DNA of 64,000 nucleotides, taken from Polyangia bacterium. GTDB lineage: Bacteria > Myxococcota_A > Polyangia > Fen-1088. A program made the position numbers and the translations under genes. A model generated the notes under the pieces. That model ran no database searches. It saw nothing but the letters and a program-made list of their open reading frames with translations, and had not been told where the DNA came from. Location of the stretch: the NCBI GenBank assembly GCA_035696125.1, contig DASRQZ010000213.1:59048-123047 (forward strand), written 5' to 3'. Shown here in pieces: positions 4,985 to 40,902 of the stretch (positions within the stretch are counted from its first letter, which is position 1; the number at the start of each line of letters is the position of its first letter).

Positions 4985-5065
4985 GGGGCGTCCAGCGGGA
5001 GGAGGGGCGCACAATAGCGCGAATGGGACGCAGGGGAAGGGAGAACAGCCAAGGCTTCCTGCCGC

Positions 5066-24627: not shown

Positions 24628-24691
24628 CCGCCGGCGCGCAGCCCACGGAGACGGTGTCGCGCGGTCGAGACCACCTCACCGCGCGCGGCGC

Positions 24692-25078
24692 TCAATACGC
24701 CGCGTAAGACTTCTCCTCGACGATGTCAGCGTGGAGGAGATCGTTGATGCGGCGTTTGAGCGCGGCCCGTTCATCATTGGTGCGGTAGACCGCTCGCGCC
24801 AGCGCCACGAAGCGCGGGCCGAAGTCGCCCGCCCGCTCGCAGTCGCGAATCTCATCCTCGACCCGCCACAGTGTCGCGTTGACCTGCTTGAGCGCAGCGC
24901 TCAGCTGGGTCAACGCGGGCGACGCGGGCAGGGTCACGTCGCGCGCCGACACCAGCGCCGCCAGCTCTGCGCGCACGTTGGCCAGCTTGTCCGGCGCGAC
25001 CAGATGCACGGCCTTGATCTCGAGGATGGTGATCTTGTCGATGAGCTCGCCCGGACCGATCGGCACCTCCAGCCTCAT
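24692..25078 (-). CDS. Conserved hypothetical protein, last gene of the fliL-fliA operon
   Basis: 128 aa; ATGA overlap with the upstream TPR-GT9 gene. Confidence 0.5.
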   Translation of the reverse strand: MRLEVPIGPGELIDKITILEIKAVHLVAPDKLANVRAELAALVSARDVTLPASPALTQLSAALKQVNATLWRVEDEIRDCERAGDFGPRFVALARAVYRTNDERAALKRRINDLLHADIVEEKSYAAY

Positions 25079-26691
25079 GGCGCCACTCCTCGCTGGCCGG
25101 CGGTGAGGCGCTCCGCCAGCGCGGCTCCGATGCGGGCGAACACCGCGGACCAGTCACCGGGTTCGGCCTGGCGAAAGAGGCGCATGGTCGGGTACCAGTC
25201 CGTGCTCTCACCGGCCGTGCCCCAGCGCCAGTCGGGCAAGTGGGCCAATGCCAACCAGACCGGCGCGCCCAGCGCACCCGCCAGGTGCGGGATCGCTGTG
25301 TCCGAAGTCACGATCAGGTCGAGCCCGGCGATCACCGCCGCGGTGTCCAGGAAGGCGCCTTCGGCATCCAGCGATGGGCCGAGGTCGATGACCCGGGGAT
25401 CGGCGGACAGCGTGCCCAGCTGTTCGCGGCCGTCCCCGTGCTGCAGGCTGACGACCGCCGCCCCCGCGGCGCGCGCCGCGCGCACCAGCGGCTGAAAGGA
25501 GGCCAGCGGGATCGATCGCCGTCCGTCGGCGCGGTAGCGGCGGTTTCCCTGCCAGGCGATGCCCACGCGGAAGCGCGCGCCACCGGTCAGCTCGTCCAGA
25601 CGCGCCCGCCACTGCCGGATGCGCGCCGGGTCGGCGTGAAGGTAGGGCGCGCCGCCCTCGCCGTTCGCGCCGGTGGCCGCCCGGCCGCCCAGCCAGGGCG
25701 GCACGCTGAACAGGCCGGCGCGCACATCGACGGCCGGCAAGCTGGCGCCGCGCGCCACGATCCGGTCGACCCCCGCGCAGCGGGTCAGCAGCGCGCTCAG
25801 GGCCGGCTGGCATTCCAGGATCACCTCACCCGCGCCGCCGAGCTGCTTGGCGGCACGCGCGTAGCGCGCCAGCTGCAAGGTATCGCCCAACCCCTGCTCG
25901 GCCTGCAGCAGCAGTCGGCGGCCGGCAAGCGCCTGGCCATTCCAGCGCGGAATCGCGGCGCTCTCCGCGGTGAGCGCGACGCGCAAGCCAGCGATCTGGT
26001 GCCGCCACTCCAGCTCAGCCCAGCCCTGCCGCTCCTCGTCGCCCGAGGCCGGCGCCGTCAACAACGTCAGGCCGAGGTTCCAGTGCGCGTCTGCGTTGGC
26101 GGGGTCGTGGGCGATGGCGCGCCGGAGGTGTTCCGCGCCGCCGGCCAGATCGCCCTGCTCCTTGCGCGCGTACCCGACGTTGGTCTCGAAACGCGCGTCG
26201 GCGGGGGCCAGCGCCACCGCCGCGCGCGCCGCCGCCTCCGCCTCCGCCGGCCGATCCGCGGCCAGCAGCAGGCCCGACAGGTTGCCGTGGAGATCGGCCA
26301 CCTCGGGCGCCCGCGCGACCGCCGACTGCAAGGTGGCGATCGCTTCGTCGAGGCGCCCGGCGGCGCGATAGGCCAGCGCGAGATTGGACAGCGCGCGGTG
26401 GTCACCGCCCAGCTCGACGGCGCGGCGATGGCTCGCGATCGCCTCGCCCAGTCGATCCAGCGCCTTCAGCGCCGTGCCGGCGCAGGTGTGGCCCACCCAA
26501 TCGTCGGGTCGCGCCTCGATCGCGCGCAGGTAGCAATCCAGTGCACCCTGCTGGTCGCTCCGCTGCTGCGCCGCCGCTCCCAGTTGCAACAGCTGCGCGG
26601 CGCGCGCGGCGGGGCTGCTGGCTTCGGCTGCCGACGAGGGCGGGCTCGAAGTCGAGGTCGAGGTCGGCGCGGGGCTGCGGCCGCCGCTCAC
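25075..26691 (-). CDS. TPR-repeat protein fused to GT9-like (heptosyltransferase-fold) glycosyltransferase
   Basis: N-terminal TPR repeats; C-terminal VTSDTAIPHLAGALGAPVWLAL matches the GT9 nucleotide-sugar-binding motif. Confidence 0.7.
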   Translation of the reverse strand: MSGGRSPAPTSTSTSSPPSSAAEASSPAARAAQLLQLGAAAQQRSDQQGALDCYLRAIEARPDDWVGHTCAGTALKALDRLGEAIASHRRAVELGGDHRALSNLALAYRAAGRLDEAIATLQSAVARAPEVADLHGNLSGLLLAADRPAEAEAAARAAVALAPADARFETNVGYARKEQGDLAGGAEHLRRAIAHDPANADAHWNLGLTLLTAPASGDEERQGWAELEWRHQIAGLRVALTAESAAIPRWNGQALAGRRLLLQAEQGLGDTLQLARYARAAKQLGGAGEVILECQPALSALLTRCAGVDRIVARGASLPAVDVRAGLFSVPPWLGGRAATGANGEGGAPYLHADPARIRQWRARLDELTGGARFRVGIAWQGNRRYRADGRRSIPLASFQPLVRAARAAGAAVVSLQHGDGREQLGTLSADPRVIDLGPSLDAEGAFLDTAAVIAGLDLIVTSDTAIPHLAGALGAPVWLALAHLPDWRWGTAGESTDWYPTMRLFRQAEPGDWSAVFARIGAALAERLTAGQRGVAP

Positions 26692-26694
26692 CGG

Positions 26695-27954
26695 TTATGT
26701 CTCCCCGACCAGCCCGGCCGCCATCACCCGCCAGGCGGGCAGCTTGCCGACCAGGCCGGCTGCGTCCAGGTAGGCGCCGTCGAAGACCGCGCGCTTGCCC
26801 GTGCCTTCGTTGGCCGGCGTGGTCATCTCGTGGGCCAGGACGTCGGCGATGTGAACCGCGCCGCTGACGTCGAACTTGCTGCGCCCGGCTGCCGACGGGT
26901 CGTGGTGGAAGGCCACCGCCTCGACCACCACGGTGGGCAAGCCCCAGATCCCGAACAGGTAGGCGCCCACCTCGGGGTGCGAGGTGCCGAACTCCGCGCT
27001 CTCCAGCAGCGTCAGCGGCAAGCCCTCACGCGATGCCTGCAGAGCGATGCGCCGGTAGGCCTCGGGGAAGCGGTTGGCCAGCACCAGCTTGCCGGCGTCG
27101 TGCAGCAGCGCCGAGACGAAGGCCTCGTCGCGGTCTTGCTTGACCGTCATCAGGCGCGCGGCGATGCGCGCGGCCAGCAGCGAGTGCTGCTGCAGCATCG
27201 CCAGGGACACACCGTAGAAGTCGTCGCGCACGTCGTAAGCCGAAAAGATCGCCGACGCCAGCGCCAGATGCTGGACGGTGTTCATGCCCAGCAGCATCAC
27301 GGCCTGCTCCACGCTGGCGATGGGCGCGCCGTTGCTGCTGCGCACGCCGAAGAAGGCCGAGTTCACCAGCTGCAGCAGCTTGGCCGACATACCGATGTCG
27401 CGCTCGACGACGCCCGCGATCTTCTTGAGGTCGGCGCGCGGGTCGCGCAGCGCGTTCTGCAGCTCCAGATACAGCGCGGGCACCACCGGTAGCGCCGAGA
27501 TGCTGCCGACCGCGTCGCGGATCGCTGGCCGTTCCAGCAGCTCGCGCACCGTGCAGGCGCGCGCCAGGGTGTCGCGCAAGCCCAGCACGTCGAAGGGCTT
27601 GGCCAGGAACTGGTGGGCGATGCCGGCCAGGCGGGTCGATGTGTCGCGGTCACCGGGCGCGGTGAAGACGATGCGGGTCACGCCCGGGTGGTCGCGCTTG
27701 ACCCTGTCGAGCAGCTCCACGCCCTGCCGTGGGTTGGCGCCCGTGAGCCGCACCTCGGTCACCAGCACGTCCACGGCCCGCTCGGCCAGCTTGTCGAGCG
27801 CGGCCGACATCGAGCCGGCGAAGATCATCTCCCAGCGGTGGCGCTCGGGGTGCAGCAGCCGCTCGAACGCCTTCAACATGCCCGGCTCATCGTCGACGAA
27901 CAGGATGCAGTGCCGGCGCTCCGAGGCCCTCTCGCTGCGCAGGCTGACATCCAT
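26695..27954 (-). CDS. Response regulator receiver + HDOD domain protein
   Basis: REC domain (ILFVDDEPGMLKAF...DVLVTEVRL...) followed by HDOD (SAKLLQLVNSAFFG...ALLHDAGKLVL); start at MDVSL (27954), 5 nt after the fliA stop. Confidence 0.8.
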   Translation of the reverse strand: MDVSLRSERASERRHCILFVDDEPGMLKAFERLLHPERHRWEMIFAGSMSAALDKLAERAVDVLVTEVRLTGANPRQGVELLDRVKRDHPGVTRIVFTAPGDRDTSTRLAGIAHQFLAKPFDVLGLRDTLARACTVRELLERPAIRDAVGSISALPVVPALYLELQNALRDPRADLKKIAGVVERDIGMSAKLLQLVNSAFFGVRSSNGAPIASVEQAVMLLGMNTVQHLALASAIFSAYDVRDDFYGVSLAMLQQHSLLAARIAARLMTVKQDRDEAFVSALLHDAGKLVLANRFPEAYRRIALQASREGLPLTLLESAEFGTSHPEVGAYLFGIWGLPTVVVEAVAFHHDPSAAGRSKFDVSGAVHIADVLAHEMTTPANEGTGKRAVFDGAYLDAAGLVGKLPAWRVMAAGLVGET

Positions 27955-27959
27955 CTGAT

Positions 27960-28691
27960 TCACCCCCCCGCGCTCCCGAGCGCGAAATCCGGCATGGTGG
28001 CGCGCAGCCGTTTCAGAGCATCGGCGTGCAGCTGGCACACGCGCGGCTCGCTGACGTCCAGCATCTTGGCGATCTCACGGTAGGTCAGCCCTTCGACGTA
28101 GTGCAGGCCCATGACGGTCTGCAGCCGCTCGGGCAACTTCTTGAAGCTCTCGGACAGCGCCTTGGCCATCTGCGCGCGCGCGATGTGGTCTTCGGCGGCG
28201 TTCGATGTCCCATCCTCACCGCCCGAGGCCAGCACGTGCGCCGCCTTGTCGAGCGGCACGTGCGGTTCGAGCAGGGTCTCGAGGCCGCTCAGCTCCTCCA
28301 TATCGATGTTCATGGCCTGCGCCACCTCCTCGGTGGTCGCGTCGCGGCCCAGCTGACCAGCCAGGCGCTGCTTGACCTTCTGTACGTCGTCGGTGCGCGA
28401 GCGCAGCCGGCGCGGCAGGTGGTCCATGCGGCGCAGCTCGTCCAGCATCGCGCCGCGGATGCGGTGCTCGACGAAGGTCTCGAAGCTGACCCCGCGCGTG
28501 GCGTCGTAGCGCGGCGCCGCCTCCAGCAGCCCGAGCGCGCCCGCCGACCACAGGTCGTCGAACGCGCTCTTGAGCCCGGTGCGCAGCGCGATCCGGCGCG
28601 CGGCCCGATCGATGATCGGCGCGTAGCGCTGAATCAACTCGTCGGCGTCGGCGGTCGCCGAAGTATATGTGGCCAGGGCGCGTCGAATCAT
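27960..28691 (-). CDS. fliA: Flagellar sigma factor FliA (sigma-28)
   Basis: Sigma70 r2-r4 regions (ELIQRYAPIIDRAARRIALRTG...LTYREIAKMLDVSEPRVCQLHADALKRLR); start at MIRRAL (28691). Confidence 0.85.
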   Translation of the reverse strand: MIRRALATYTSATADADELIQRYAPIIDRAARRIALRTGLKSAFDDLWSAGALGLLEAAPRYDATRGVSFETFVEHRIRGAMLDELRRMDHLPRRLRSRTDDVQKVKQRLAGQLGRDATTEEVAQAMNIDMEELSGLETLLEPHVPLDKAAHVLASGGEDGTSNAAEDHIARAQMAKALSESFKKLPERLQTVMGLHYVEGLTYREIAKMLDVSEPRVCQLHADALKRLRATMPDFALGSAGG

Positions 28692-28695
28692 GGCG

Positions 28696-29571
28696 TCAAC
28701 CGGCAGGCGGAGCCGACTCCCGCAGCAGGCGCTGCCACATGACCTTGAGACCGCCGTCGAGCTTGCTGGCGGGCGGACCGTCGAGCAGGCGCACCGCGAT
28801 GTCACCCAGCGCGCGGCTCGCCGGCGAGCTCGGGAACATGTCGACCAGCGGCCGCTGCGCCATGATGGCGCGGTGGAAGTTCTCGTCGCGCGGGATGTAG
28901 CCCAGGTGGCGCATGCGCGCGGTCAGAAAGCGGTTGGTGACCGTGGTCAGCTTGTTGAAGATCCCGCGCGCCGCCAGCTCGTCGACCACCGGGTTGACGA
29001 TGACGCTGAAACTCTGCACGCCAGCCTGCTGCGACAGCACCTTGACCACGGCGTAGGCGTCGATGAGCGCCGTCGGCTCCGGGTTGACGACCAGGATCGC
29101 CTCCTGCGCGGCGCCCACGAAGAACAGCACGTTGTCGCCGATGCCCGCGCCCGAGTCGATGAACACCACGTCGAAGAGATCCTCCAGCGGATCCAGGGCG
29201 GTGATGAACTGCCTCTTCTCGTTGTCGCTGAGCTGGGTCAAGCTCTGGATGCCCGAGCCCGCGGGTAAAAGGCAGATGCCATGCGGGCCCTGCACCAGGA
29301 CCTCGTTGATGGGCCGGCCGCCGCCGAGCACGTCGCCGAGGTGAAAGCGCGGCTTGAGTCCGAACAGGATCTCGATGTTGGCCAGGCCCAGATCGGCGTC
29401 GATGACCAGCACGCGCTTGCCGGTCTTGGCGATGTGGATCGCCAGGTTGGCCGCGACGTTGGACTTGCCCACCCCTCCCTTGCCACTGGTGACCGCGAAT
29501 ACCTTGAGCGCGGGGCGCGTCAACCGCCCATCCGCCGCCATGCTCCGTAGGCTGTCTGCCTGATCCGCCAC
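28696..29571 (-). CDS. flhG: Flagellar number regulator FlhG/FleN (MinD-like ATPase)
   Basis: Deviant Walker A VTSGKGGVGKS; MinD/ParA fold. Confidence 0.85.
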   Translation of the reverse strand: MADQADSLRSMAADGRLTRPALKVFAVTSGKGGVGKSNVAANLAIHIAKTGKRVLVIDADLGLANIEILFGLKPRFHLGDVLGGGRPINEVLVQGPHGICLLPAGSGIQSLTQLSDNEKRQFITALDPLEDLFDVVFIDSGAGIGDNVLFFVGAAQEAILVVNPEPTALIDAYAVVKVLSQQAGVQSFSVIVNPVVDELAARGIFNKLTTVTNRFLTARMRHLGYIPRDENFHRAIMAQRPLVDMFPSSPASRALGDIAVRLLDGPPASKLDGGLKVMWQRLLRESAPPAG

Positions 29572-29598
29572 GTTTCGAGCGCTCCTCTACCTTTACCT

Positions 29599-30771
29599 TC
29601 AGGGTCCGAAAACGATCCGCACCAGGTCGGGCCCGGTGACGGCGTGAATGTCCTCGGGCACGCGCTGGCCGTCGCTGATGCACGACACCGGGCGTGGCAG
29701 CGCCGACAGCGCCGAGTAGATCCCGGCCGACCCGTCGACCTCGTCGAGCTTGGTCAGGATCATCCGCTCGGGCGCGATGGCCCGGTAGCGGCGCGCGATG
29801 GCGCCCAGCTCGCGACCGCCGGCAGCCGCCGACAGCACCAGCTGCAGCTCGATCTGGGGCACCGAGCGCAGCAGCGAGGTCTGCTCCGCCAGCGATTGGT
29901 TGTCGGAGCGGCCCGCGGTGTCGATCAGCACCAGGTCGGCGTCCTGAAAGCGCTCGACGCCCGCGGCCAGCGCGGCGCGGTCGCGGGCGACGTGGGTCGG
30001 GATCCCCATGATGTTTCCGTAGCGGGCCAACTGGTCACTCGCTCCCACCCGGTACGTATCGACCGTAATCAGAGCCACCTTGAATCGGGTTTCCAGCAGT
30101 GCCCGCGCCGCGATCTTGGCGATCGCCGTGGTCTTGCCGACCCCGGTCGGGCCGATGAGGGCCAGGGTGCGCCGCCCTTCGGCCAGCCAGGGGGCGGCCG
30201 CGGGCGCCATCTGCTTGCGCATCGAGGTCTTGACCGCTTCTTCGATCTCATCGCCGCTGGACGCGCCCAGGCGGCGCGCCTCCTCGACCAGCCCGCGCGC
30301 CAGGAACTCCTCCATGCCGCGCCGGATGAGGTGCCTGTAGGTGCGCAGCTCCTCGCTGCTGAAGCGCGGCGCCTCGTCGTCGACCATGCCCCCGATCTCG
30401 CGCGGACCACCCGCGTTGCTCGCGGGCCGCGCGGCCGGCGGCATGCGCTGCCGCATGTCCTCGACCAGCCGGCGCAGCGCCGTGACCTCCGATTGCAGGT
30501 CTCCCCCGTTTCCGCCGGCGTAGGCCGCGGCGCGCTTGCCGCGCGTCCCGTGCAACGGGGCGTCCTCGAAGGCGGCCGCGCGCCGGGCGTCGGGCGCGCT
30601 GGCGGCGGGGCCGGCCGCCGTCACCTCGATCTGGGCGCGGCCGAACAGGCCGGCCGCGACTTCGCGGGTTTCCAGGATGACCGCTTCGCCGCCCAGGGCG
30701 GCGCGGACCGCGGACAGGGCGGCGCGCGCGTCGGGTGCGCGGAAGGTCCTCACGTTCGTGTGGGCGTTCAT
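29599..30771 (-). CDS. flhF: Flagellar biosynthesis GTPase FlhF (SRP-type)
   Basis: LIGPTGVGKTTAIAKIA...DTAGRS SRP-GTPase motifs. Confidence 0.85.
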   Translation of the reverse strand: MNAHTNVRTFRAPDARAALSAVRAALGGEAVILETREVAAGLFGRAQIEVTAAGPAASAPDARRAAAFEDAPLHGTRGKRAAAYAGGNGGDLQSEVTALRRLVEDMRQRMPPAARPASNAGGPREIGGMVDDEAPRFSSEELRTYRHLIRRGMEEFLARGLVEEARRLGASSGDEIEEAVKTSMRKQMAPAAAPWLAEGRRTLALIGPTGVGKTTAIAKIAARALLETRFKVALITVDTYRVGASDQLARYGNIMGIPTHVARDRAALAAGVERFQDADLVLIDTAGRSDNQSLAEQTSLLRSVPQIELQLVLSAAAGGRELGAIARRYRAIAPERMILTKLDEVDGSAGIYSALSALPRPVSCISDGQRVPEDIHAVTGPDLVRIVFGP

Positions 30772-30820
30772 GTTTTTCAGGCTCCTTGAGGGCTGCTCGG
30801 GGCGTGGAGGTCAGGTGAAG

Positions 30821-32908
30821 TCATGCGGCGCGTCCCAGCGCGGGGGCCGAGAGATCGATGGTCGCGACCGGCTCGACCGAGGTGCCGGGCACCAGCTCGC
30901 GCGCGGTGATCACCGAAAGGTCGGGCACGAAACGCGAGGCGAAGTCGAACAGGGGGCGGCGCAGGTCGGGCGGCGCGATGATCACCGTGGGCTGTCCCTC
31001 GGCCGCGAAGCGCGCCGCGCGGTCCTCGAGCGCGCCCACCAGGCGGCGCGCGGTCTCGATGTCGGGCGCCAGCGTGGCCTCGCCGTCACTTTGGCCCAGG
31101 CTGCGCCGCAGAGTGTCCTCGGCGACCCGGTCGAGGGTGACCGCGCGGACCACGCCCGCGCCGTCGGAGACGCGCGCCGTTATCTGCCGGAACAGCCGGC
31201 GGCGCACCTGCTCGACCAGGAAGGCGGTGTCCTTGCTGCGCGGGGCGGCGTCGGCGACCCCTTCCAGGATGGTGCGCAGATCGCGCACCGAGAGCCCTTC
31301 ACGCAGCAGGCCGCGGACCACCCGTACCAGCTCGCCCAGGGTGATGGTCCCGGGGATCGCGTCCTCGACCAGCTTGGGCGCCTCTTTACCGATCGCGCCC
31401 AAGAGCTCCTGCACTTCTTGCCGCCCCACCAGCTCGGCGACGTTGCGGCGGATGACCTCGGACAGGTGGGTGGTCATCACCGATGGTGGGTCGACCACGG
31501 TCAGGCCGGCGGACTCGGCGCGCGCGCGATCGGTGGGAACCACCCACAGCGCGGTGAGGCCGAAGGCCGGCTCCTTGGCAGAGATGCCGTCCAGGCCCGC
31601 GACCTGGGGCGTGCCGCCCGATGGGTCGAGCACCATCAAGCGATCGACGTAGGCGGTGCCCTTGCCCACCTCGACGCCGCGCAGGCGGATGCGGTACTCG
31701 TTGGGCTCGAGGCGCAGGTTGTCGCGCAGGTGCACGGGTGGCAGCACCACGCCGAGATCGGTCGCGATCTGCTTGCGCAGGGCGGTGACCCGGCCCGGCA
31801 GCTCGCCGCCCTTGTCGAGATCGATCAGGCGCAGCAACCCGTGGCCGACCTCGAGCTCGATGGCGTCGACCGTGATCAGGTCCTGCATGCGCTCGGGCTT
31901 GGGGCCGCCCGCCTCGGCGGCGGCCGCCTCGGCCGCGCGTCGCTCGCTCTCCGGCTTTTCGCGCCGGCGCGAAAGGAGATAGGCGCCCAGCGCCAGCAGG
32001 CCGAACGGGATGGTCGGCATGCCCGGAACCGCTGCCAGCGCGCCCAGCACGCCGGCCGTATAGGTGAGCGTGCGCGAGCGGCCAAAGATCTGGCCGCCGA
32101 TCTCCAGGCCGAGGTGCGCGCCCGCGCCCGCGCGGGTGACCACGATACCGGCGGCGGTCGAGATCAGCAGCGCCGGCATCTGCGACACCAGGCCGTCGCC
32201 GATGGTGAGGATGGTGAACGACTCGACGGCGGCGGCCAGTGACATGTGATCGCGGATCATGCCGGCGAGCAAGCCGCCCACGATGTTGATGGCGGTGATG
32301 ATCAGGCCGGCGACCGCGTCGCCGCGCACGAACTTGCTGGCGCCGTCCATGGCGCCGAAGAACTCGATCTCGCGTTCCAGGCTCGAGCGGCGAATCTTGG
32401 CCGCGCGCTCGTCAATCAGGCCAGCGGCCAGGTCGGCGTCGATCGACATCTGCTTGCCGGGCAAGGCGTCCAGGGTAAAGCGCGCCGCGACCTCGGCCAC
32501 GCGACCGGAGCCCTTGGTGATGACCGAGAAGTTGACCGCCAGCAGGATCAGGAAGACCACGGCGCCCACGATCAGGCTGCCGCCGACCGCGAAGCGGCCG
32601 AAGGTCTCGATCACGTCGCCGGCGGCGTGCGACCCCTCCCCGCCTTTGAGCAGGATGAGGCGCGTGGTGGCGACGTTCAGGCCCAGGCGGAACAGGGTGG
32701 TGATCAGCAACAGCGACGGGAAGACCGAGAAGTCGAGCGGCCGCTCCAGGCTGAGGGAGACCAGCAGGATCAGCACCGACACCGCGATGTTGAAAGACAG
32801 CAGGATGTCGAGCGCCAGCGGCGGCAGCGGCAGGATCAGGATCGCCAGGACGCCGAGGACGGCGATCGCGAGCAAGCCTTGACCGGTATTCTGCTTCGGG
32901 TTGTCCAC
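30821..32908 (-). CDS. flhA: Flagellar export apparatus protein FlhA
   Basis: 695 aa, 8 TM N-terminal domain plus cytoplasmic FlhA domain. Confidence 0.9.
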   Translation of the reverse strand: MDNPKQNTGQGLLAIAVLGVLAILILPLPPLALDILLSFNIAVSVLILLVSLSLERPLDFSVFPSLLLITTLFRLGLNVATTRLILLKGGEGSHAAGDVIETFGRFAVGGSLIVGAVVFLILLAVNFSVITKGSGRVAEVAARFTLDALPGKQMSIDADLAAGLIDERAAKIRRSSLEREIEFFGAMDGASKFVRGDAVAGLIITAINIVGGLLAGMIRDHMSLAAAVESFTILTIGDGLVSQMPALLISTAAGIVVTRAGAGAHLGLEIGGQIFGRSRTLTYTAGVLGALAAVPGMPTIPFGLLALGAYLLSRRREKPESERRAAEAAAAEAGGPKPERMQDLITVDAIELEVGHGLLRLIDLDKGGELPGRVTALRKQIATDLGVVLPPVHLRDNLRLEPNEYRIRLRGVEVGKGTAYVDRLMVLDPSGGTPQVAGLDGISAKEPAFGLTALWVVPTDRARAESAGLTVVDPPSVMTTHLSEVIRRNVAELVGRQEVQELLGAIGKEAPKLVEDAIPGTITLGELVRVVRGLLREGLSVRDLRTILEGVADAAPRSKDTAFLVEQVRRRLFRQITARVSDGAGVVRAVTLDRVAEDTLRRSLGQSDGEATLAPDIETARRLVGALEDRAARFAAEGQPTVIIAPPDLRRPLFDFASRFVPDLSVITARELVPGTSVEPVATIDLSAPALGRAA

Positions 32909-32911
32909 TGG

Positions 32912-33985: not shown

Positions 33986-33994
33986 GGTCGGTCC

Positions 33995-34801
33995 CTACAC
34001 GCCCCCGCCGGTGAAAGCCGCGGTAGCAGTGCGGGCCGCCAGCTCGGCGATGGGCGGCGCCAGCACGTAAAGCGCCGCGCCGCCGGCGATGATGGTGATA
34101 CAGAAGCCGATGGTGTTGATGCTCAGCTGCGGCGCCGTGCGGCCCACGACGCCGAGGGCGACGTGGCCGAAGAGCACGGCGACCATGATCGGGAACGCCA
34201 TGCGGACCGCCAGCGCCGTGGCGCTGATCCCCTGGCTGATCACCGCGCCGGCCAGCGCGTTCGGGTCGACGCCGGCGGTGGCTCCCGGCGGGATGGCGAT
34301 GACCGAGCGGCACAGCCAGGCGATCGCCTCGCGGTGCATCCCGGAGGCCACCAGCGCCGCCACCGAGAACATCGAGAGCAGTTCGGCGATCGCGGTCGAA
34401 TCCGCGCCGTGCAGCGGATCGATGACCGAACCATACGAAAGTCCCATCGACGTCGCGGCGAGCTGCCCGCACGCGCTGGCAGCGTCGATGGCGAAGCTGG
34501 CCGCCAGCCCGGCGGTGAGGCCGATCAGCGTCTCCATCACGGCCGCGCCGAGCAGCGCCCCGATGCCCCCACCCGCGGGCGGCACGAACGTCGGGAAACC
34601 GGCGCCCGAGAACGCCGCGAACGCCAGGACGAAGGCCATCCCCATCCTCGCGCGCCGTGGCACCGCCTTCATCGCGAACAACGGCGCCACCGAGCAGAGC
34701 GCCGTACACCGGAACAACACGAGCAAGAACCCGAACAGGGTCGGTGTCAGAAAGCCGGCGTCGGAGGGCACGCGGGGAAGTACTTGCGATAACCGTTCCA
34801 C
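33995..34801 (-). CDS. fliR: Flagellar export protein FliR
   Basis: 268 aa polytopic membrane protein, FliR family. Confidence 0.85.
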   Translation of the reverse strand: MERLSQVLPRVPSDAGFLTPTLFGFLLVLFRCTALCSVAPLFAMKAVPRRARMGMAFVLAFAAFSGAGFPTFVPPAGGGIGALLGAAVMETLIGLTAGLAASFAIDAASACGQLAATSMGLSYGSVIDPLHGADSTAIAELLSMFSVAALVASGMHREAIAWLCRSVIAIPPGATAGVDPNALAGAVISQGISATALAVRMAFPIMVAVLFGHVALGVVGRTAPQLSINTIGFCITIIAGGAALYVLAPPIAELAARTATAAFTGGGV

Positions 34802-34892
34802 TTCATTCCCCCACCTGGCGAAAGTGGGATCGTCGACGTCACCGTCGACGATCCCATTTTCGACGGAAAACGAGGCCGGCCGGACCGGAATC

Positions 34893-35153
34893 CTACCGTG
34901 CCGACATCCTCTGCATCGCGTCCGCCAGGAAGTGCGCGTATCGCTCCAGCACCCAGCGCCCGAGGGCCCACGCCCCCAGCAGTGCGACGGCGAGCCGCGG
35001 CAGGAAGCCGACCGCGGGATCGTTGATCTGGGTGGCGGCCTGCAGGATGCCCACGATCAGCCCGACCAGCAGCAATCCGCCGATGAATGGGCCGGCGGTC
35101 GAGGCCAGCAGGGTGAAGCCCTCGCGCATCAGGGCGGCAGGTACGACCTCCAT
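34893..35153 (-). CDS. fliQ: Flagellar export protein FliQ
   Basis: 86 aa (MEVVPAALMREGF...GILQAATQINDPAVGFLPR...), the last part of track ORF 34893-35966; start overlaps the fliP stop (TGATG). Confidence 0.8.
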   Translation of the reverse strand: MEVVPAALMREGFTLLASTAGPFIGGLLLVGLIVGILQAATQINDPAVGFLPRLAVALLGAWALGRWVLERYAHFLADAMQRMSAR

Positions 35154-35863
35154 CAGCCGAAGCTCCGCACCAGCGACGAGACCACCAGATGCCAGCCGCC
35201 GGCCAGCAGGAAGATCCCGATCTTGAGAGGCAGCGCGATCATCTGTGGTGGCACCATCATCATGCCCAGGGACATCAACACCGACGCGATCAGGACGTCG
35301 ACCAGCAGCATCGGCACGAACAGATAGAGGCCCATGCGAAAAGCGGTGCTGAGCTCGGAGATCATGAAGGCCGGGATCACCACCGTCATCGGCATCGCGT
35401 CCCCGCGTGTGGGCCGCGCCTGACCGGAGATCTCGAAGAAGAGCCGCAGATCGTCGTCCCGCGTCTGCTTGAGCATCCAGTCGCGCAAGGGCCCCTGCCC
35501 GCGCTCCAGCGCCGTGCTGGCGTCGATCTTGTCGTCGAGATAGGGACCGAGCGCGTCGTGGTGCACGCGACTGGCGGTGGGCGCCATGATGAAGACGGTG
35601 AGGAACAGCGACAGCCCGGCCAGTATCTGGTTGGGTGGCAGCTGCGGCGTGCCCAGCGCCTGGCGCAGGAACGACAGCACGATGATGATGCGGGTGAAGC
35701 AGGTCAGCGACAGCACCAGCGCCGACGCGAAGGACAGCGCCGTCACCAGCAGGAAGATCTTGACCGCCGACGAGCCGCCGCCCGCGAGCGCCATCTCGGC
35801 GCCGCTGCGCGCGACCTGGGTCAAGGCGTCGGCGGCTCCGAGCGCGGGGTGGGCTGCGTTCAA
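35153..35863 (-). CDS. fliP: Flagellar export protein FliP
   Basis: 236 aa, FliP family TM helices and conserved periplasmic loop. Confidence 0.85.
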   Translation of the reverse strand: MNAAHPALGAADALTQVARSGAEMALAGGGSSAVKIFLLVTALSFASALVLSLTCFTRIIIVLSFLRQALGTPQLPPNQILAGLSLFLTVFIMAPTASRVHHDALGPYLDDKIDASTALERGQGPLRDWMLKQTRDDDLRLFFEISGQARPTRGDAMPMTVVIPAFMISELSTAFRMGLYLFVPMLLVDVLIASVLMSLGMMMVPPQMIALPLKIGIFLLAGGWHLVVSSLVRSFG

Positions 35864-37398
35864 CGAACCCTCCCGGACAGGCCCAGCGCCAGCTTGCGGC
35901 GCAGCTCCTGGTCCTCGAAGCTATCCTCGAGGTAGTCCTGGAAGCGCGGCAGCGAGACCCGCCCATCGTTGGCGGGCGTGCCCTTGCGGAACAGGCGCGC
36001 CAGCAACCCGGCCTGACCGACCGGGTGCGGCTCGCCCGGATCGAGGCTGATGGCGGAGGTCGGGTTGGGGGCCTCCTCGACCTCGATCTTCATGGTCGGC
36101 TCGAAGGTCATCGCCACCGGGACCGCCCTGCTGGCGGGTGGCGGCGCGACCGCCAGCGGCGGCGCGCTGACCAGATCCGGCCAGGGAGTGGGAGTGGGCG
36201 CCGGCGGCGAGGCGGTCACGGCCGGCGCCCCGGCGGGCGACGTCAGCGTCGCGGTCACCATGGCATCCCAGGCGGCGTCCTCGGCCGCAGGCATCGACTC
36301 GATGATCCGGGCGGCCAGGCTCTCGACCTTCAGCTCGCTGGTGTCGGGCAGCTCCTGGAGCAGGGTGATACCTGCCTCGCTGGAGCCCAGGATCAGGCGG
36401 GTCCGCCCCACACGCGCCACCACCAGCGCCCGCTTGGGGCCCAGGCTGGCGGTCTCGAGAATCTCGATGTGCCGGGTGACCGTGCGCCGCCGGCGCGAGA
36501 AGAAGAAGGCCGCGATCGCCACCGCGAGGAAGGCCAGGCCGGCGAGCACCACGCGACCACCGCCCGCGCTGCTGGAGGCGGGCGGGTTGTTCGGCATTGC
36601 CGTCGGCGTCCGCGGGAGCGCCGCAGCCGCGGGAACGAGGGGGTTCAGCTTGGGATCGATCACGCCGACGCCGACGCTGACGCCGACGCCGGCGCCGCCG
36701 ACGACGGGAGACTGGGGCGCGACCTGGGCGGGTGAAGGAGGCCCGAACCTCAGATCACTGGCGACCTCCTTGGCGGGCGGCGCGATCGGCTTCGGGTTGG
36801 ACCCGGCCATGGGGGCGCCGGCTGTCTTCTTGGGGCCTGTGGCCTGGGCGGGCAGGTCGTCGCCGGCGTTCTCGTCGGGACCCAGCGCCAGCTTGGCCTT
36901 GAGCGCGGCGGCGTCGCTCGCCGACAGCGCCGCGGGGACCACGGTCCTGGCGACAGCGTCGGCCCGGGGCGCCGGCTTGAGCATCGCAGGTTCCTTGGCG
37001 CGCGCGACGCTGGGCCGCGACCCGCCGTCACACGCGACCAGCGCGCGCAGGCCACCGGGTGATTTCTCGAACTCGACCGGACCCTGGCAGGCGCCGTCGC
37101 CAAGCGGTATCGCCAGCTCGACTCTCAGCCGGTGTCGGTGGGCGCGAATCTCCTCGGCGCCCTCGGCGACGTCGTTGTCCCAGGCTCGGTTGGCCTCGCG
37201 CACACGCGCGTCCCGCACGTACAGATAGAGGCGGCCCTCGCCCAGCGTGGCGCTCGCCGCCTCCGGGTCGATCATCGCGTCACCCTTGACGGTGATGGCG
37301 ATGCGTCCGCCCTCACGCTCGGCGCTGACCTCGGAGATGGTGACCTGGGTAACCAGCAGACCCACGGGAATCAGAAGCGCAGCACCGATCATGACCAC
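35860..37398 (-). CDS. fliO: FliO-domain protein with long N- and C-terminal extensions (512 aa)
   Basis: Starts 28 nt after the fliN stop. Central TM (LAGLAFLAVAIAAFFF) + FliO-like region (RHIEILETASLGPKRALVVARVGRTRLILGSSEAGITLLQEL). A 290-aa N-terminal region follows a signal/TM. A Pro-rich C-terminus. An internal GVGVSVGVGV stretch is encoded by a hexamer array. Confidence 0.55.
   Translation of the reverse strand: MVMIGAALLIPVGLLVTQVTISEVSAEREGGRIAITVKGDAMIDPEAASATLGEGRLYLYVRDARVREANRAWDNDVAEGAEEIRAHRHRLRVELAIPLGDGACQGPVEFEKSPGGLRALVACDGGSRPSVARAKEPAMLKPAPRADAVARTVVPAALSASDAAALKAKLALGPDENAGDDLPAQATGPKKTAGAPMAGSNPKPIAPPAKEVASDLRFGPPSPAQVAPQSPVVGGAGVGVSVGVGVIDPKLNPLVPAAAALPRTPTAMPNNPPASSSAGGGRVVLAGLAFLAVAIAAFFFSRRRRTVTRHIEILETASLGPKRALVVARVGRTRLILGSSEAGITLLQELPDTSELKVESLAARIIESMPAAEDAAWDAMVTATLTSPAGAPAVTASPPAPTPTPWPDLVSAPPLAVAPPPASRAVPVAMTFEPTMKIEVEEAPNPTSAISLDPGEPHPVGQAGLLARLFRKGTPANDGRVSLPRFQDYLEDSFEDQELRRKLALGLSGRVR
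36658..36707. repeat. In-frame hexamer array inside fliO-like CDS, encoding (GV)n
   Basis: gatCACGCCGACGCCGACGCTGACGCCGACGCC...; the same GATCACGCCGAC start as the copies at 12024 and 60121. Confidence 0.85.
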
Positions 37399-37426
37399 CC
37401 ATCCTTTCTGTTTTTTCCCAAGTGCT

Positions 37427-37720
37427 TCATCGCAACCGCGCGATGCGCTCGGCCTGGCTCACGATGTCGGTGATACGCACACCGAACTTGTCGTTGACCA
37501 CCACCGCTTCGCCGCGCGCGACCAGCCGGTCGTTGACCAGGATGTCCAGCGCCTCGCCGGCGACCTTGTCGAGCTCGATCACCGAGCCTGGGCCCAGCGT
37601 CAACAGATCCTGGATCGACATCCGGGCCCGACCGAGCTCGACGGCGATGTCGAGCGGCACGTCCAGCAGCAGGTCGAGGCGCCGCGGGTTTTCGCCGCTG
37701 TTGTTGTCATTGGATTCCAT
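37427..37720 (-). CDS. fliN: Flagellar motor switch protein FliN
   Basis: 97 aa SpoA domain. Confidence 0.85.
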   Translation of the reverse strand: MESNDNNSGENPRRLDLLLDVPLDIAVELGRARMSIQDLLTLGPGSVIELDKVAGEALDILVNDRLVARGEAVVVNDKFGVRITDIVSQAERIARLR

Positions 37721-37754
37721 GGATCTCCTTCTTCTTGCCTGACTGGTCTGACCT

Positions 37755-38780
37755 TCAGGTTCCCGGGGCGGCGTTGGCGCCGCCGGTTGGCTCCAGCCCC
37801 TGCAGCGGACGCAAACCCTGTTCCACCACCACCGCCATGCTGCCGCCCACCACCCGCGGCAAGCCGGTCATCTTGGGCCGGCCTTGCACGTAGATCGGCA
37901 GCGGCGACGACTCGCTGCCGTCGAGCATCATCAAATCGCCGACCTTGAGCTCGAGCAGCTTGGCAAAGGTCATCTTGGCGCGGCCGATCTCGACGCGCAT
38001 GTCGACCTTGACGTTGTGCAGGTCCCTGGCCCAGGCGTTCACGAAGCGCGCGTCGGTCTGCTTGCCCTGGCGAGGCGGCGAGATCAGCGACTTCTTGACC
38101 GGCTCGACCGTGGCGTAAGGGATCGCCAGCTGGATGCGCCCGTTGGCCACGCCGGTGATCTCATAGGCGCACAGGATGGTCAGGTCGTTGGGTCCGCAGA
38201 TCATCGCCATGCGCGGATCGGACTCGTTGCGCACGATCTCCGGGCGGAAGCGCAGCACCTCGGCCCAGCCCTGCCCCAGCGCATCGCAGAAGACGCCCAG
38301 CAAGCTCTTGAGCACGCGGCGCTCGACGTTGGTCAGGTCGGTGCGGCCGTCGTCGGAGGAAGGGTCGCTTCGTGCCGTGCGATCACCGAGCGCGCCGGCC
38401 AGCACCGTGCGGGCCAACGGCACCTCGACCATCAGCACCGCCTGGCCGTGCCCGGGTCCCATCGACATGATCCAGACCGAATTGCCCGCGCCGAACAGGC
38501 TGCTCACGTCGCCGAACTGCATCAGCGTCGACGCCGCCGGCGCCACTCGCAGATCCAGGCGGGTGCGTCCCGCCAGGTTGGTGCCGAAGATCGACGCGAC
38601 CTTCTCGTTGATCGAGTCCAGGGTCGGCATCTGACCCCGGATGATGCGATCCTGACTGGTGAGGTCGTAGGTCAGCGCGGGCGCGCTGCCCTCTTCTTCC
38701 CCCGGATCGGCGCCGACGCGGCCATCCTGGATGGCCGCCATCAATGCATCGACTTCACTTTGGTCCAGGGGCGATGTCAT
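37755..38780 (-). CDS. fliM: Flagellar motor switch protein FliM
   Basis: 341 aa, FliM middle domain plus C-terminal SpoA. Confidence 0.85.
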   Translation of the reverse strand: MTSPLDQSEVDALMAAIQDGRVGADPGEEEGSAPALTYDLTSQDRIIRGQMPTLDSINEKVASIFGTNLAGRTRLDLRVAPAASTLMQFGDVSSLFGAGNSVWIMSMGPGHGQAVLMVEVPLARTVLAGALGDRTARSDPSSDDGRTDLTNVERRVLKSLLGVFCDALGQGWAEVLRFRPEIVRNESDPRMAMICGPNDLTILCAYEITGVANGRIQLAIPYATVEPVKKSLISPPRQGKQTDARFVNAWARDLHNVKVDMRVEIGRAKMTFAKLLELKVGDLMMLDGSESSPLPIYVQGRPKMTGLPRVVGGSMAVVVEQGLRPLQGLEPTGGANAAPGT

Positions 38781-38791
38781 GGGCGTAGGTC

Positions 38792-39340
38792 CTACTGGAT
38801 GATGAAGTCGGTGATGTAGACGGCGCGGACGCGATGTCCGGGGATCAGCTCTTCCAGGTTCTTGATCATCGCCTCCTTCATCTGCTTGAGGCCATCGCTG
38901 CCGCGCAGCTCGTCGGGCGTTCGGTCGCTGAGGTAGCTCAGGATCAGGTCGCGGATGGGCGCGACCTTCTTTTCGACGCGGCCCTTGGTGGCCTCGTCGG
39001 AAACCTCGATCTCCAGCCCGAGGTGGGCATAGCGATCCACGTCCAGCGACTTGAGCTGAACGGTGAAGTTGTCGAAGCGGATGCTCGGCCCGGGGCCACC
39101 GCCTTCTTCGGGGGCGCCGTGCTCGCCGGCCGGCTTCTCCTCTTTTCCTTCGGCGTGGCCCTCGGCCGCCGGCTTTCCTTCCGCCCCGGCGCCAACGTGG
39201 GCCTGCGCTGCCGGGCGTTTCATCACGAAGATGAGCACACCGGTCAAGAGCAGCGTATTGATGACCAGCAGGATCGGCAGGACCTTGCTCTTACCGGCGG
39301 GCGGGGCAGCCGCTGCCCCGGTCTCTTCATCTTCACTCAT
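38792..39340 (-). CDS. fliL: Flagellar basal-body-associated protein FliL
   Basis: Single TM + FliL domain; start at MSEDEE (39340) with GGAGACGGAGG RBS. Confidence 0.8.
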   Translation of the reverse strand: MSEDEETGAAAAPPAGKSKVLPILLVINTLLLTGVLIFVMKRPAAQAHVGAGAEGKPAAEGHAEGKEEKPAGEHGAPEEGGGPGPSIRFDNFTVQLKSLDVDRYAHLGLEIEVSDEATKGRVEKKVAPIRDLILSYLSDRTPDELRGSDGLKQMKEAMIKNLEELIPGHRVRAVYITDFIIQ

Positions 39341-39367
39341 AAGGAAACGCCTCCGTCTCCACCGAGT

Positions 39368-39383
39368 AGCAAGGGGCGTACCC
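39368..39383 (-). promoter_or_regulatory. Candidate sigma54 (-24/-12) promoter for the fliL...fliA operon
   Basis: Minus-strand GGGTAC-gcccc-TTGCT, GG-N10-GC spacing correct, about 30 nt upstream of the fliL ATG. Confidence 0.35.
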
Positions 39384-39593
39384 TTCACGCCGCGACCCCG
39401 GCGGCCCGCCGGCCCGCGGAAACCGCGGCTCGCGGTTCCGTATCCCCGTCAGGAGGGTGACGCGGCAGGGGCGCGCGTCAGTTTGATGACGGCGCGCGCG
39501 ATCGTCGCGGACGATGATCGCGACCTGCGAATCTGTACGTCTTGCACTCCGCTAAGGTATTCGCCTTCATCTACCGAGTTGCGTCTTGTCGCC

Positions 39594-40685
39594 ATGGCAG
39601 GCAGCCCAAACGGTCGTTCCACGGTGACCATCGGCACCGTTCGCACAGGTGAGACGGCGGCTCCCGGCACCGTGCCTCCGGCGCGAGCCACCGGCGTCGT
39701 GCCGGCGATCCCCACGGCGCCGAACGCGACCCGCACCGGCCAGAGCACGACCGCGCCCGGCTCGGCGACAGCGACCCGCAGCGGAACCAGCGCGGCCTCC
39801 GCGCGCGCTACCAAGACGGTCGCCATCGGCGACATGGCGCTCATCCGCATCGACCACTATGCCGACTCGATCGTCACCGACACCAAGGCGCTGCGCCGCT
39901 CCCTGCCCGACGTCGCGGCCGAGGCGCTGGCGCTGTGCACGAGCTCGACCGCCGACGCCAACGCCATGGAGCGGACGCTGTCACGCGACCCTTTCATCAG
40001 CGCGCAGGTGATCTCGATCGCCAACTCGGCGATGTTTGCGCCCCGCATGCCGATCCTCGGCGTACGCGACGCCGTGGTGCGCATCGGGCTCGACGCCGTC
40101 CGCGACGTCGTGCTCATGGTGGTCACCAACTCCACCATGTACCGCGTGCGCGGGTTCGAGGCGCGCGTCGACCTGCTGCGACGACGCACCCTGGCCTCGG
40201 CCGCGGCCGCGCGGCTGCTGGCCAAGGTGCTGCGCGTGGAATCCGAATATGGTTTTCTCGCGGGCCTGCTGCACGACATCGGCGAGATGGTCCTGCTCGA
40301 GCGCTGCGTGCAGGAAGGCATGCTGGTCCCGGGCATGCTCGAGGACCCCAACGACGGTCCGATCATCCGCGACCGCCTCGACTATCACCACACGCGCGTG
40401 GGCGCGGCTCTGTGCCGCGCCTGGAAGCTGCCACCCGGCGTGATCGAGGCGGCCGAATTTCATCACGACTACAAGACCGCCGACGGCAAGACCCGCTTCG
40501 CCGCCCACCTGTGCGCCGCCGCCGACGCGATCGCGGCGCAGGTGATGCCGGGGGCGCACGGCATCTCCGCCGCCGACGCGCCCGCGATCGTCGAGCTGGG
40601 CCTGACCAGCGAGCAAGCCAACACCATCGTCCAGCACGTGACCGCCGCCCTGCCGCTCTTGATCTCGGCAGGGGGGGTCGGTTGA
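39594..40685 (+). CDS. HDOD domain protein with Thr/Ala-rich N-terminal region
   Basis: HDOD signature (FLAGLLHDIGEMVLLE...HHTRVGAALCRAWKLP); start at MAGSPNG (39594); stop codon lies inside the MITE target-site duplication. Confidence 0.7.
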   Translation: MAGSPNGRSTVTIGTVRTGETAAPGTVPPARATGVVPAIPTAPNATRTGQSTTAPGSATATRSGTSAASARATKTVAIGDMALIRIDHYADSIVTDTKALRRSLPDVAAEALALCTSSTADANAMERTLSRDPFISAQVISIANSAMFAPRMPILGVRDAVVRIGLDAVRDVVLMVVTNSTMYRVRGFEARVDLLRRRTLASAAAARLLAKVLRVESEYGFLAGLLHDIGEMVLLERCVQEGMLVPGMLEDPNDGPIIRDRLDYHHTRVGAALCRAWKLPPGVIEAAEFHHDYKTADGKTRFAAHLCAAADAIAAQVMPGAHGISAADAPAIVELGLTSEQANTIVQHVTAALPLLISAGGVG

Positions 40686-40689
40686 TAGC

Positions 40690-40859
40690 CTGACGAATCC
40701 CCGCGAATCTCGTTCGCGAGTCGGTCCGGCGCCGTCTTTCCCGTCGGCGTCGGCGTCGGCGTCACCGTGGGCGACCCGAACGGCGACAGAGCCCGAATCG
40801 CCGACGCCGACGCCGACGCTGACGCCGACGGATGAATCGTATTCGTGGGGATTCGTCAG
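40690..40859. mobile_element. MITE-like non-autonomous element (170 bp) with ~19-bp TIRs and 9-10 bp TSD
   Basis: TIRs CTGACGAATCCCCGCGAAT / ATTCGTGGGGATTCGTCAG (1 mismatch); flanking direct repeat (G)GTTGATAGC at 40680-40689 and 40859-40868; core is a hexamer hairpin (GTCGGC)3-ACCGTGGGCG-loop-(GCCGAC)n. Confidence 0.65.
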
Positions 40860-40902
40860 GTTGATAGCTCACGCCTGACTGGCGACTCGCTATAATCGGC
40901 CG

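Follow-up and report, generated by a model that had tools for sequence, protein, structure and literature searches.

The stretch of DNA considered here comprises 64,000 nucleotides (nt) of contig DASRQZ010000213.1 (positions 59,048 to 123,047) from the Polyangia bacterium assembly GCA_035696125.1 and is referred to below as the window. It contains a minus-strand run of 15 genes, from fliL (39340) to position 24692, in which fliLMNOPQR-flhBAFG-fliA are followed by a tail of three accessory genes. These encode a response regulator (RR) with a receiver and an HDOD domain (REC-HDOD), a protein with a tetratricopeptide repeat (TPR) array and a GT9-type glycosyltransferase (GT) domain (TPR-GT9), and a small DUF6165 protein. 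A fourth accessory gene, encoding an HDOD-only protein, diverges from fliL across a 253 nt intergenic region. The locus is a complete sigma-54-type flagellar system in the Myxococcota, a phylum known for gliding.

The fliL operon and the genes attached to it

The high G+C content of the window (~70%) gives rise to many spurious open reading frames (ORFs). Reading frames were picked by the pattern of G+C content over the three codon positions (GC1>GC2<GC3) and then confirmed with Pfam and NCBIfam, and start codons were set by upstream purine-rich motifs and the lengths of homologues (Table 1). A first-pass annotation of this DNA had counted seventeen genes between fliL and 24692, a number that is corrected to 15 here. 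Its gene order and domain calls were right, and the junction mapping bears out the 5 nt gap between fliA and the RR gene, the ATGA and TGATG overlaps and the largest gap of 91 nt that it had described; the divergent orientation of the HDOD-only gene is likewise confirmed. From fliL to DUF6165 the junctions measure 11, 34, 28, -4, -1, 91, 9, 3, 49, 27, 4, 5, 3, and -4 nt. Because all junctions lie between -4 and +91 nt and no terminator-like site was found between fliA and the tail genes, the 15 genes would be transcribed as a single unit, which ends at 24692 facing a convergent BON gene. A sigma-70 promoter scan of positions 24000-41000 returned zero sites.

The order fliA-RR-TPR_GT9-DUF6165 is conserved. 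Homologues of REC-HDOD form two groups, i.e., a small clade with 58-93% identity, all from Polyangia-like metagenomic contigs, and a very large group with 35-45% identity from Planctomycetota, Acidobacteriota, Nitrospirota, Chloroflexota, and others. The complete order is found wherever a clade locus of at least 64% identity has sufficient flanking sequence (L001, L002/L011, L010, L012, and L037); RR-TPR_GT9-DUF6165 is also found on L013 and L014, where the contigs begin within the RR gene, and fliA adjoins the RR gene in L093-L096. Relative to L001 the tail proteins are 66% (RR), 68% (DUF6165), and 45% (TPR-GT9) identical, which is inside the range of the core proteins (FliA 70%, FlhF 59%, FliO 36%) and argues that the tail genes are under purifying selection. 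The region downstream of the tail is variable: the BON and mutarotase-like genes are present at this place in the closest relatives only and absent from L001, a lineage of 66% identity, and the conserved unit thus ends with DUF6165. Both genes seem to have entered the flagellar region recently. The HDOD-only gene is divergent from fliL, at a distance of ~200-240 nt, in L006/L007 (66% identity), L008 (59%), and L009 (47%), where its other neighbours are entirely different, and by this comparison it is the most deeply conserved of the accessory genes. As the tail is present in every sampled fliA-linked relative and the divergent HDOD gene in four lineages, the arrangement is not due to chance, and the conserved gene order speaks for a connection of all four accessory genes with the flagellum.

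An alignment of the intergenic region between fliL and the HDOD-only gene from four lineages (the window, L006, L008, and L009) reveals two blocks that are conserved although the sequence around them has diverged. The GG-N10-GC core of a sigma-54-type -24/-12 element is conserved in all four lineages, and the version in L009, GGCACGTGGCTTGCT, matches the sigma-54 consensus. The first of two CGTCA-N6-TGACG palindromes is conserved in L006, L008, and L009. The palindromes precede the -12 element by ~85 and ~115 nt, a distance typical of sites for enhancer-binding proteins, and are candidate sites for such a protein common to the two divergent genes. The enhancer-binding protein would probably be encoded elsewhere; neither an rpoN gene nor a gene for an AAA+ activator is present in the window. 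Between the palindromes and the start of the HDOD-only gene there is also a near-perfect inverted repeat, CGCGATCGTCG-N4-CGATGATCGCG (39497-39522), which the other lineages do not have.

It follows from the position of the tail genes in a sigma-54-type operon for the export apparatus and FliA that they are probably made together with these proteins, as early or middle genes and not as late (class III) genes. The FliA/FlgM checkpoint probably operates downstream of this operon, since flgM is present and loose sigma-28-like elements precede flgM and the flagellin gene. The consensus TAAA-N14-16-CCGAT has no match in the window, and the candidate loose sigma-28 promoters are TTAA-N16-GCCGAAGC (~15291) before flgM and GCCGATAA (~11984), ~210 nt upstream of the flagellin start. 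The latter is located within the flagellin leader region, which is unusually long (380 nt) and A+T-richer. A second sigma-54-type element, TTGGCCCCGACCTTGCTGA (20458-20472, minus strand), is found upstream of flgF; it is shared by L001, L010, and L037 and immediately preceded by a GGTCAGAAACACGAC block that is likewise conserved. The true start of flgF is probably a GTG ~40 nt downstream and not the TTG at 20501.

Two further features of the operon were noted. The only sizeable gap, between fliQ and fliR (34802-34892), measures ~100-340 nt in relatives and might act as an attenuator or internal promoter or contain an overlooked small ORF. FliO proteins are usually ~120-150 aa long; the long form encoded here is kept in L001, L008, and L009 (432-457 aa). 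Its N-terminal ~280 aa consist of a hydrophobic start, an unassigned domain and a Pro/Ala-rich linker, and neither this extension nor the C-terminal one (~150 aa) has a Pfam match, even at E = 1.

Table 1. Positions of genes and regulatory elements in the window (minus-strand genes of the fliL operon in order of transcription, followed by the divergent gene, the elements between them and other genes).
Feature	Positions	Strand	Evidence and remarks
fliL, operon gene 1	38792-39340	-	Pfam FliL 68 bits; GGAGACGGAGG precedes ATG at 39340
fliM	37755-38780	-	Pfam FliM and FliMN_C; 11 nt after fliL
fliN	37427-37720	-	Pfam FliMN_C 95 bits
fliO, long, 512 aa	35860-37398	-	Pfam and NCBIfam FliO, aa 302-355 only
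fliP	35153-35863	-	Pfam FliP 245 bits; TTG start; 4 nt overlap with fliO
fliQ	34893-35153	-	Pfam Bac_export_3; TGATG overlap with fliP
fliR	33995-34801	-	Pfam Bac_export_1; 91 nt after fliQ
flhB	32912-33985	-	Pfam Bac_export_2 289 bits
flhA	30821-32908	-	Pfam FHIPEP 820 bits
flhF, GTPase of signal recognition particle (SRP) type	29599-30771	-	Pfam SRP54 113 bits
flhG, MinD/ParA-type ATPase	28696-29571	-	Pfam ParA/CbiA/AAA_31; frame chosen by GC3 pattern
fliA (sigma-28), 243 aa	27960-28691	-	TIGR02479 FliA_WhiG (NCBIfam) 204.7 bits, cut-off 189.6; 4 nt after flhG
REC-HDOD, 419 aa	26695-27954	-	Pfam Response_reg and HDOD; 5 nt after fliA
TPR-GT9, 538 aa	25075-26691	-	TPR 27-232, GT-B catalytic domain 259-533
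DUF6165 protein, 128 aa	24692-25078	-	Pfam DUF6165 (PF19662) 38.6 bits, cut-off 27; ATGA overlap with TPR-GT9
HDOD-only protein, 363 aa	39594-40685	+	Pfam HDOD 134 bits; divergent from fliL
Sigma-54-type -24/-12 element, GGGTACGCCCCTTGCT	39368-39383	-	GG-N10-GC; ends 28 nt before fliL ATG
Palindromes CGTCA-N6-TGACG	39447-39462, 39476-39491		only two perfect matches in 64 kb; 29 nt apart
BON-domain gene	24094-24627	+	between operon end and GT2-TPR gene; convergent to operon
TTE1925-family mutarotase-like gene	22597-23592	+	between operon end and GT2-TPR gene
GT2-TPR gene	21129-22451	+	weak SunS-family similarity; after FliJ-like gene
flgM, 95 aa	14954-15241	-	Pfam FlgM 27 bits; between flgJ-like gene and flgN
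GT2-TPR gene	7080-8705	-	weak SunS-family similarity

The REC-HDOD and HDOD-only proteins

The receiver domain of REC-HDOD scores 49 bits against Pfam Response_reg (PF00072; cut-off 30.2). Alignment with clade members and distant homologues shows Glu67 to occupy the phospho-acceptor site that closes strand beta-3 (VDVLVTEVRL), and all 10 clade proteins aligned have Glu there. Counted by DNA locus, the acceptor residue is Asp in 152 cases, Glu in nine (all from the clade) and Gly in one; the window also has Glu, which brings the fliA-linked DNA copies to 10, all with Glu. The motif DMRMPGMDG is present in nearly all of 77 Asp-type homologues compared, whereas the MPGMDG loop is lost in the Glu clade; the acidic pair D21/D22, T/S98, and K119 are retained. 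By a crude motif test an H-box ORF is located directly upstream of 96 of 131 Asp-type genes (~73%) against none of the eight Glu-type genes, and no kinase domain was found among the scanned window ORFs; a distant orphan kinase is conceivable. As the acceptor is Glu throughout the clade and no kinase is encoded nearby, REC-HDOD is probably phosphorylation-independent, and it is most simply explained as an ordinary two-component regulator of the REC-HDOD type that has lost both its kinase and its phosphorylation site. The Glu form exists away from fliA as well (P0024, see below), and the clade is linked to fliA at identities of at least 64%. Asp-to-Glu changes in receivers are often partly constitutive, e.g., NtrC D54E, and some natural atypical regulators have Glu at the acceptor position.

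Among the Asp-type homologues, kinase-REC_HDOD-REC_HD_5 triads are found in L004 and L005, and L003 has a REC_HDOD-REC_HD_5 pair without a called kinase. The REC-HD_5 partners translated from L003 and L004 are degenerate, with HFDGAG instead of the HD-GYP motif. Such triads of a kinase, a REC-HDOD and a REC-pseudo-HD-GYP protein are widespread and appear uncharacterised; the one in L004 (Chloroflexota) adjoins flbD-motAB-fliL.

The HDOD domains (PF08668; cut-off 22.9) score 167 bits in the RR and 134 bits in the HDOD-only protein, and the best PDB matches of the two proteins are the HDOD structures 3hc1 and 3m1t. The best match of the RR domain is 3HC1 (E = 6e-19), and its residues H257, H285, D286, H326, H350, and H351 align to identical residues of that structure. 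3HC1 binds two iron ions via five His and one Asp, most of which SadB has lost (PMC12075610). The ligand residues are kept in the Glu and the Asp groups alike, which suggests that the predicted metal site of the RR is ancestral and maintained. The full 3HC1-type ligand set is found in the RR only; in the HDOD-only protein an invariant Arg replaces the first ligand His, and the ligand Asp is Asn in some relatives. At 30% identity to the RR HDOD protein, the HDOD-only protein is not a recent duplicate of it. Its N-terminal ~95 aa are of low complexity and poorly conserved. The possibility that its invariant LRRSLP corresponds to the essential Arg pair of PSPTO_4229 was rejected, as the positions within the domain differ.

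Several HDOD proteins have motility phenotypes, i.e., GsmR, Cj0248, SadB, PSPTO_4229, and PFL_0554/5871. PSPTO_4229 and PFL_0554/5871 alter swimming, and SadB is an adaptor for AmrZ proteolysis that does not need cyclic di-GMP (c-di-GMP). DVU0330, a REC-HDOD protein with intact HD residues, is a weak phosphodiesterase on bis(p-nitrophenyl) phosphate (bis-pNPP) and is inactive on c-di-GMP and the other substrates tried. The REC-HDOD protein GsmR of Xanthomonas campestris affects flagellar gene expression and is described as having no enzymatic activity (Liu et al. 2013). The link between HDOD proteins and motility is thus repeated in the literature and mechanistically unclear. Among the scanned window ORFs no GGDEF, EAL, PilZ, or HD-GYP genes were found, and a search of the whole window against Rfam at the gathering threshold gave no match, hence no c-di-GMP or other riboswitch. 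It is plausible that the two HDOD proteins encoded here act on flagellar regulators by protein-protein contact.

The TPR-GT9 enzyme, its DUF6165 partner and the surrounding region

The assignment of the GT domain is weak by sequence: the TPR-GT9 protein scores 21.5 bits against Pfam PF01075, just below the cut-off of 22, with a match limited to residues 447-478, and several homologues carry a recorded PF01075 match. The GT9 (heptosyltransferase) assignment is supported by the predicted fold, as the catalytic domain is modelled with a GT-B fold closest to GT9 structures. Its conserved motifs GD and SDT..HLAGALG are invariant. The TPR array matches the OGT TPR domain by sequence, and a PDB sequence search with the protein returned matches for the TPR half only and none for the C-terminal domain. 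No signal peptide or membrane helix was evident by eye in the sequence or in the AlphaFold2 (AF2) model, and the enzyme therefore appears to be cytoplasmic, so that its substrates should be cytoplasmic too.

DUF6165 is fused C-terminally to the GT domain in seven proteins (P0301/13/16/22/25/29/30), i.e., in the same order as the two window ORFs, and the fused domains are ~60% identical to the window DUF6165. A full-library search with DUF6165 returned 4,737 clusters, and in more than half of the best 150 it is a domain of longer proteins, C-terminal and rarely N-terminal or internal. Ten DUF6165 proteins were scanned: seven have TPR arrays, two of these also a significant GT9 match, two have an FkbM methyltransferase domain and one consists of tandem DUF6165 alone. 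In the AF2 model of one GT-DUF6165 fusion the domain is a four-helix bundle. Since DUF6165 is usually fused to this enzyme family, and in the same order, the two window ORFs constitute one split enzyme with DUF6165 as its detached C-terminal module. Literature searches on DUF6165 and DUF4254 found nothing useful. A flagellar substrate is plausible in view of the fliA-operon context, the apparent cytoplasmic location and the TPR domain.

The window encodes other glycosyltransferases. The GT2-TPR gene that starts at 21129 keeps its synteny in all relatives, and a GT4 enzyme and a PMT/ArnT-like membrane glycosyltransferase are encoded at 3338-5014 and 5617-6966 (both minus strand); it is possible that several flagellar glycosylation activities are present in the region. 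Past the HDOD-only gene, an envelope-glycan cluster (42155-46915) contains genes for a B12-binding radical SAM protein, an O-antigen-ligase-like protein (Wzy_C) and a Bac_transf sugar transferase; relatives do not have it at this position.

Flagellar genes fill most of the first 40 kb of the window. On the minus strand fliS, fliD, a gene for a 274 aa flagellin, flgL, flgK, flgN, flgM, an M23/FlgJ-like gene, flgI, flgH, flgG, and flgF are found at lower coordinates, and on the plus strand the FliJ-like, GT2-TPR, mutarotase-like, and BON genes precede the fliL operon. The TPR-GT9 protein is 100% identical to P0241, a protein of a 'Polyangia bacterium' metagenome-assembled genome (MAG), and the best named homologues of other window proteins come from MAGs of Polyangia or Myxococcales.

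Interpretation and relation to known systems

The locus is read here, with somewhat more confidence than doubt, as a 15-gene sigma-54-type flagellar operon with a kinase-independent REC-HDOD protein, a split glycosyltransferase and a divergent HDOD modulator. Transcription would start at the sigma-54-type promoter 5' of fliL, and the three lineage-specific genes would be translationally coupled to the 3' end of the operon. REC-HDOD would descend from kinase-partnered regulators and most likely acts unphosphorylated, in an amount set by operon expression. Its full two-metal site could bind a metal-dependent ligand or be a weak phosphohydrolase, and the protein may contact a flagellar regulator or assembly factor encoded on the same mRNA (FliA, FlhF, or FlhG). 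Like other HDOD proteins, the HDOD-only protein probably modulates motility in the manner of an adaptor. A protein substrate may be recognised by the TPR domain, by the helical module or by both, and would receive a sugar, possibly heptose, from the GT9 domain; flagellin or some other export substrate of the flagellar apparatus, glycosylated prior to export, is the most likely candidate. A more far-reaching proposal, that the pseudo-receiver-HDOD protein senses a small molecule or redox state via its di-metal site independently of any kinase and adjusts FliA, FlhF, or FlhG, and that the GT9 heptosyltransferase-type enzyme, with its TPR array and with DUF6165 as a four-helix specificity module that can be detached, represents a new class of flagellar GT, is unlikely. 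The organism is uncultured, and every functional statement made here is derived from its sequence.

A number of observations weigh against the favoured reading. The sigma-54 pattern occurs 52 times in the window against 68 matches expected by chance, so the promoter argument is one of position and conservation. Internal transcription starts are possible in view of a sigma-54-like match within fliM, and attenuation in view of a short GC hairpin with a T-run right after the fliQ stop (34888-34876, minus strand), the sole terminator-like site in an intergenic gap. Glu67 can mimic phospho-Asp or merely inactivate the domain. P0024, with 58% identity the nearest Glu-type relative outside the fliA-linked group, is not adjacent to fliA, so the REC-HDOD protein is not flagellar by nature. 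Most members of the widespread TPR-GT9-DUF6165 family are found in non-flagellar contexts: its catalytic domain has more than 6,900 matches at E<1e-5, with ~50% identity across phyla, and three members inspected have unrelated genomic contexts. The packing between the GT and DUF6165 domains is uncertain (predicted template modelling score, pTM, 0.68). No genes for ADP-heptose or nonulosonic-acid synthesis were seen in the window, and the two GT2-TPR enzymes qualify at least as well for the glycosylation of flagellin.

It is conceivable that the tail genes are passengers after fliA, i.e., a general glycosylation module and a regulator whose targets lie outside the flagellum, for instance among the glycans of the envelope or surface. 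The size of the family, its members in unrelated contexts, P0024 without flagellar linkage and the O-antigen-ligase-like, sugar-transferase, GT4, and PMT-like genes of the window would all fit this, yet it is doubtful: the genes are closely coupled (3-5 nt gaps, one ATGA overlap), all fliA-linked loci of the clade (64-93% identity) retain the tail while the BON and mutarotase-like genes vary, and an apparently cytoplasmic enzyme suits flagellar-export substrates. Improbable to a greater degree is the proposal that REC-HDOD is a metal-dependent phosphohydrolase, held 'on' by its Glu receiver, that removes a nucleotide signal while the flagellum is built. The complete His5Asp site has the same pattern as the di-iron site of 3HC1, DVU0330 is weakly active on bis-pNPP, and the first NCBIfam match of the receiver is an RR-type c-di-GMP phosphodiesterase family, matched over the receiver part only. 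Against it, none of the HDOD domains has a known physiological substrate, DVU0330 showed no activity on c-di-GMP or the other substrates tried, and GsmR and SadB function without catalysis.

The first-pass annotation had proposed a dedicated signalling input by the two HDOD proteins to class III expression or motor function, with a c-di-GMP or chemosensory connection, and glycosylation coupled to late flagellar expression. In its explicit form, a working two-component REC-HDOD regulator that together with the HDOD-only protein conveys c-di-GMP or chemosensory information to class III expression or the motor, this is very unlikely. In other bacteria cheY often follows fliA in flhF-flhG-fliA operons, which would speak for such a regulator. 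The receiver keeps D21/D22, T/S98, and K119, and the REC-HDOD protein GsmR controls flagellar gene expression in Xanthomonas. Nevertheless every clade member has Glu at the acceptor position and has lost the MPGMDG loop, and there is no nearby kinase, as opposed to the adjacent one of ~73% of the Asp-type homologues. Nor were c-di-GMP genes or a riboswitch found among the scanned window ORFs or with Rfam, and the HDOD proteins that have been tested, SadB and DVU0330, neither needed nor hydrolysed c-di-GMP, so the c-di-GMP link is abandoned. The link to class III is dropped as well, as the genes belong to a sigma-54-type early or middle operon and not to a sigma-28 one. A coupling of glycosylation to late expression is unsupported, and, the enzyme family being mostly non-flagellar, a flagellar substrate is suggested by context. 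What stands of the dedicated input is that synteny ties the accessory genes to the flagellum and that HDOD proteins have precedents in motility; a conventional two-component input does not, given Glu67 and the missing kinase. The broader view, in which the operon carries accessory functions in signalling and glycosylation, thus remains, and the readings given to them are plausible.

Links between HDOD proteins and motility, REC-HDOD regulators, TPR-dependent flagellin glycosyltransferases, and sigma-54 flagellar operons are already known. New are a variant with a Glu receiver and no kinase that is fixed in the position after fliA, an HDOD gene as constant divergent neighbour of fliL, the presence within a flagellar operon of a TPR enzyme of the GT9 type together with its DUF6165 module, and the setting in Myxococcota. 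HDOD domains are common in bacterial signalling, without a known ligand or general mechanism, and this lineage ties two of them to the export/sigma-28 operon; a probably phosphorylation-dead, possibly phosphomimetic receiver next to an intact metal site makes a convenient case for HDOD function. The placement after fliA gives the TPR-GT9-DUF6165 family, with several thousand members, its first testable substrate hypothesis, namely flagellar proteins, and the flagellar GT reading, if true, would be the first function for several thousand uncharacterised proteins.

Among regulators, GsmR is similar to the window REC-HDOD in architecture and in its link to flagellar genes. It differs in that it is described as an orphan regulator without the conserved active-site His and without phosphatase activity, whereas the window protein has a complete metal-ligand set, an acceptor Glu and a gene coupled to fliA. 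The canonical kinase-paired REC-HDOD proteins of the DVU0330 type (L003-L005; 152 loci in many phyla) are 35-45% identical over the full length and share with the window protein the linker motif AHQFLAKP and the HDOD metal ligands; they have Asp, DMRMPGMDG, and usually an adjacent kinase, in contrast to the Glu, the altered loop, the lack of a kinase and the position after fliA of the flagellar clade. The HDOD-only protein resembles Cj0248- and SadB-type structures by sequence matches, and its metal site is partly degenerate like that of SadB. However, SadB has an extra YbaK-like domain where the HDOD-only protein has just a low-complexity N-terminus, and none of SadB, PSPTO_4229, PFL_0554/5871, and Cj0248 is reported as a fixed divergent partner of a fliL operon.

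The closest parallels to the enzyme are FlmG (TPR and GT-B, Caulobacterales) and Maf-1, which are cytoplasmic and bind flagellin by a TPR domain; the window enzyme is likewise TPR-bearing, apparently cytoplasmic and, as FlmG and Maf are, encoded in a flagellar cluster. The small DUF6165 partner (128 aa) recalls GlfM (89 aa), the cis-encoded four-helix specificity factor that Maf-2 needs; the likeness is one of function. The GT9 fold differs from the GT-A fold of Maf, and no pseudaminic or legionaminic acid genes are located near TPR-GT9. The GT9 enzymes WaaC/WaaF and the protein heptosyltransferase TibC are 12-17% identical to the window enzyme, which has in addition the N-terminal TPR array and the C-terminal DUF6165 partner.

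In the polar flagellates Vibrio, Pseudomonas, and Campylobacter, flhF-flhG-fliA operons are under sigma-54 control. The order fliLMNOPQR-flhBAFG-fliA and the sigma-54-type promoter agree with those operons, which continue after fliA with cheY-cheZ-cheA, whereas the operon described here continues with a pseudo-receiver-HDOD protein and a glycosyltransferase pair, in a phylum whose cultured members glide.

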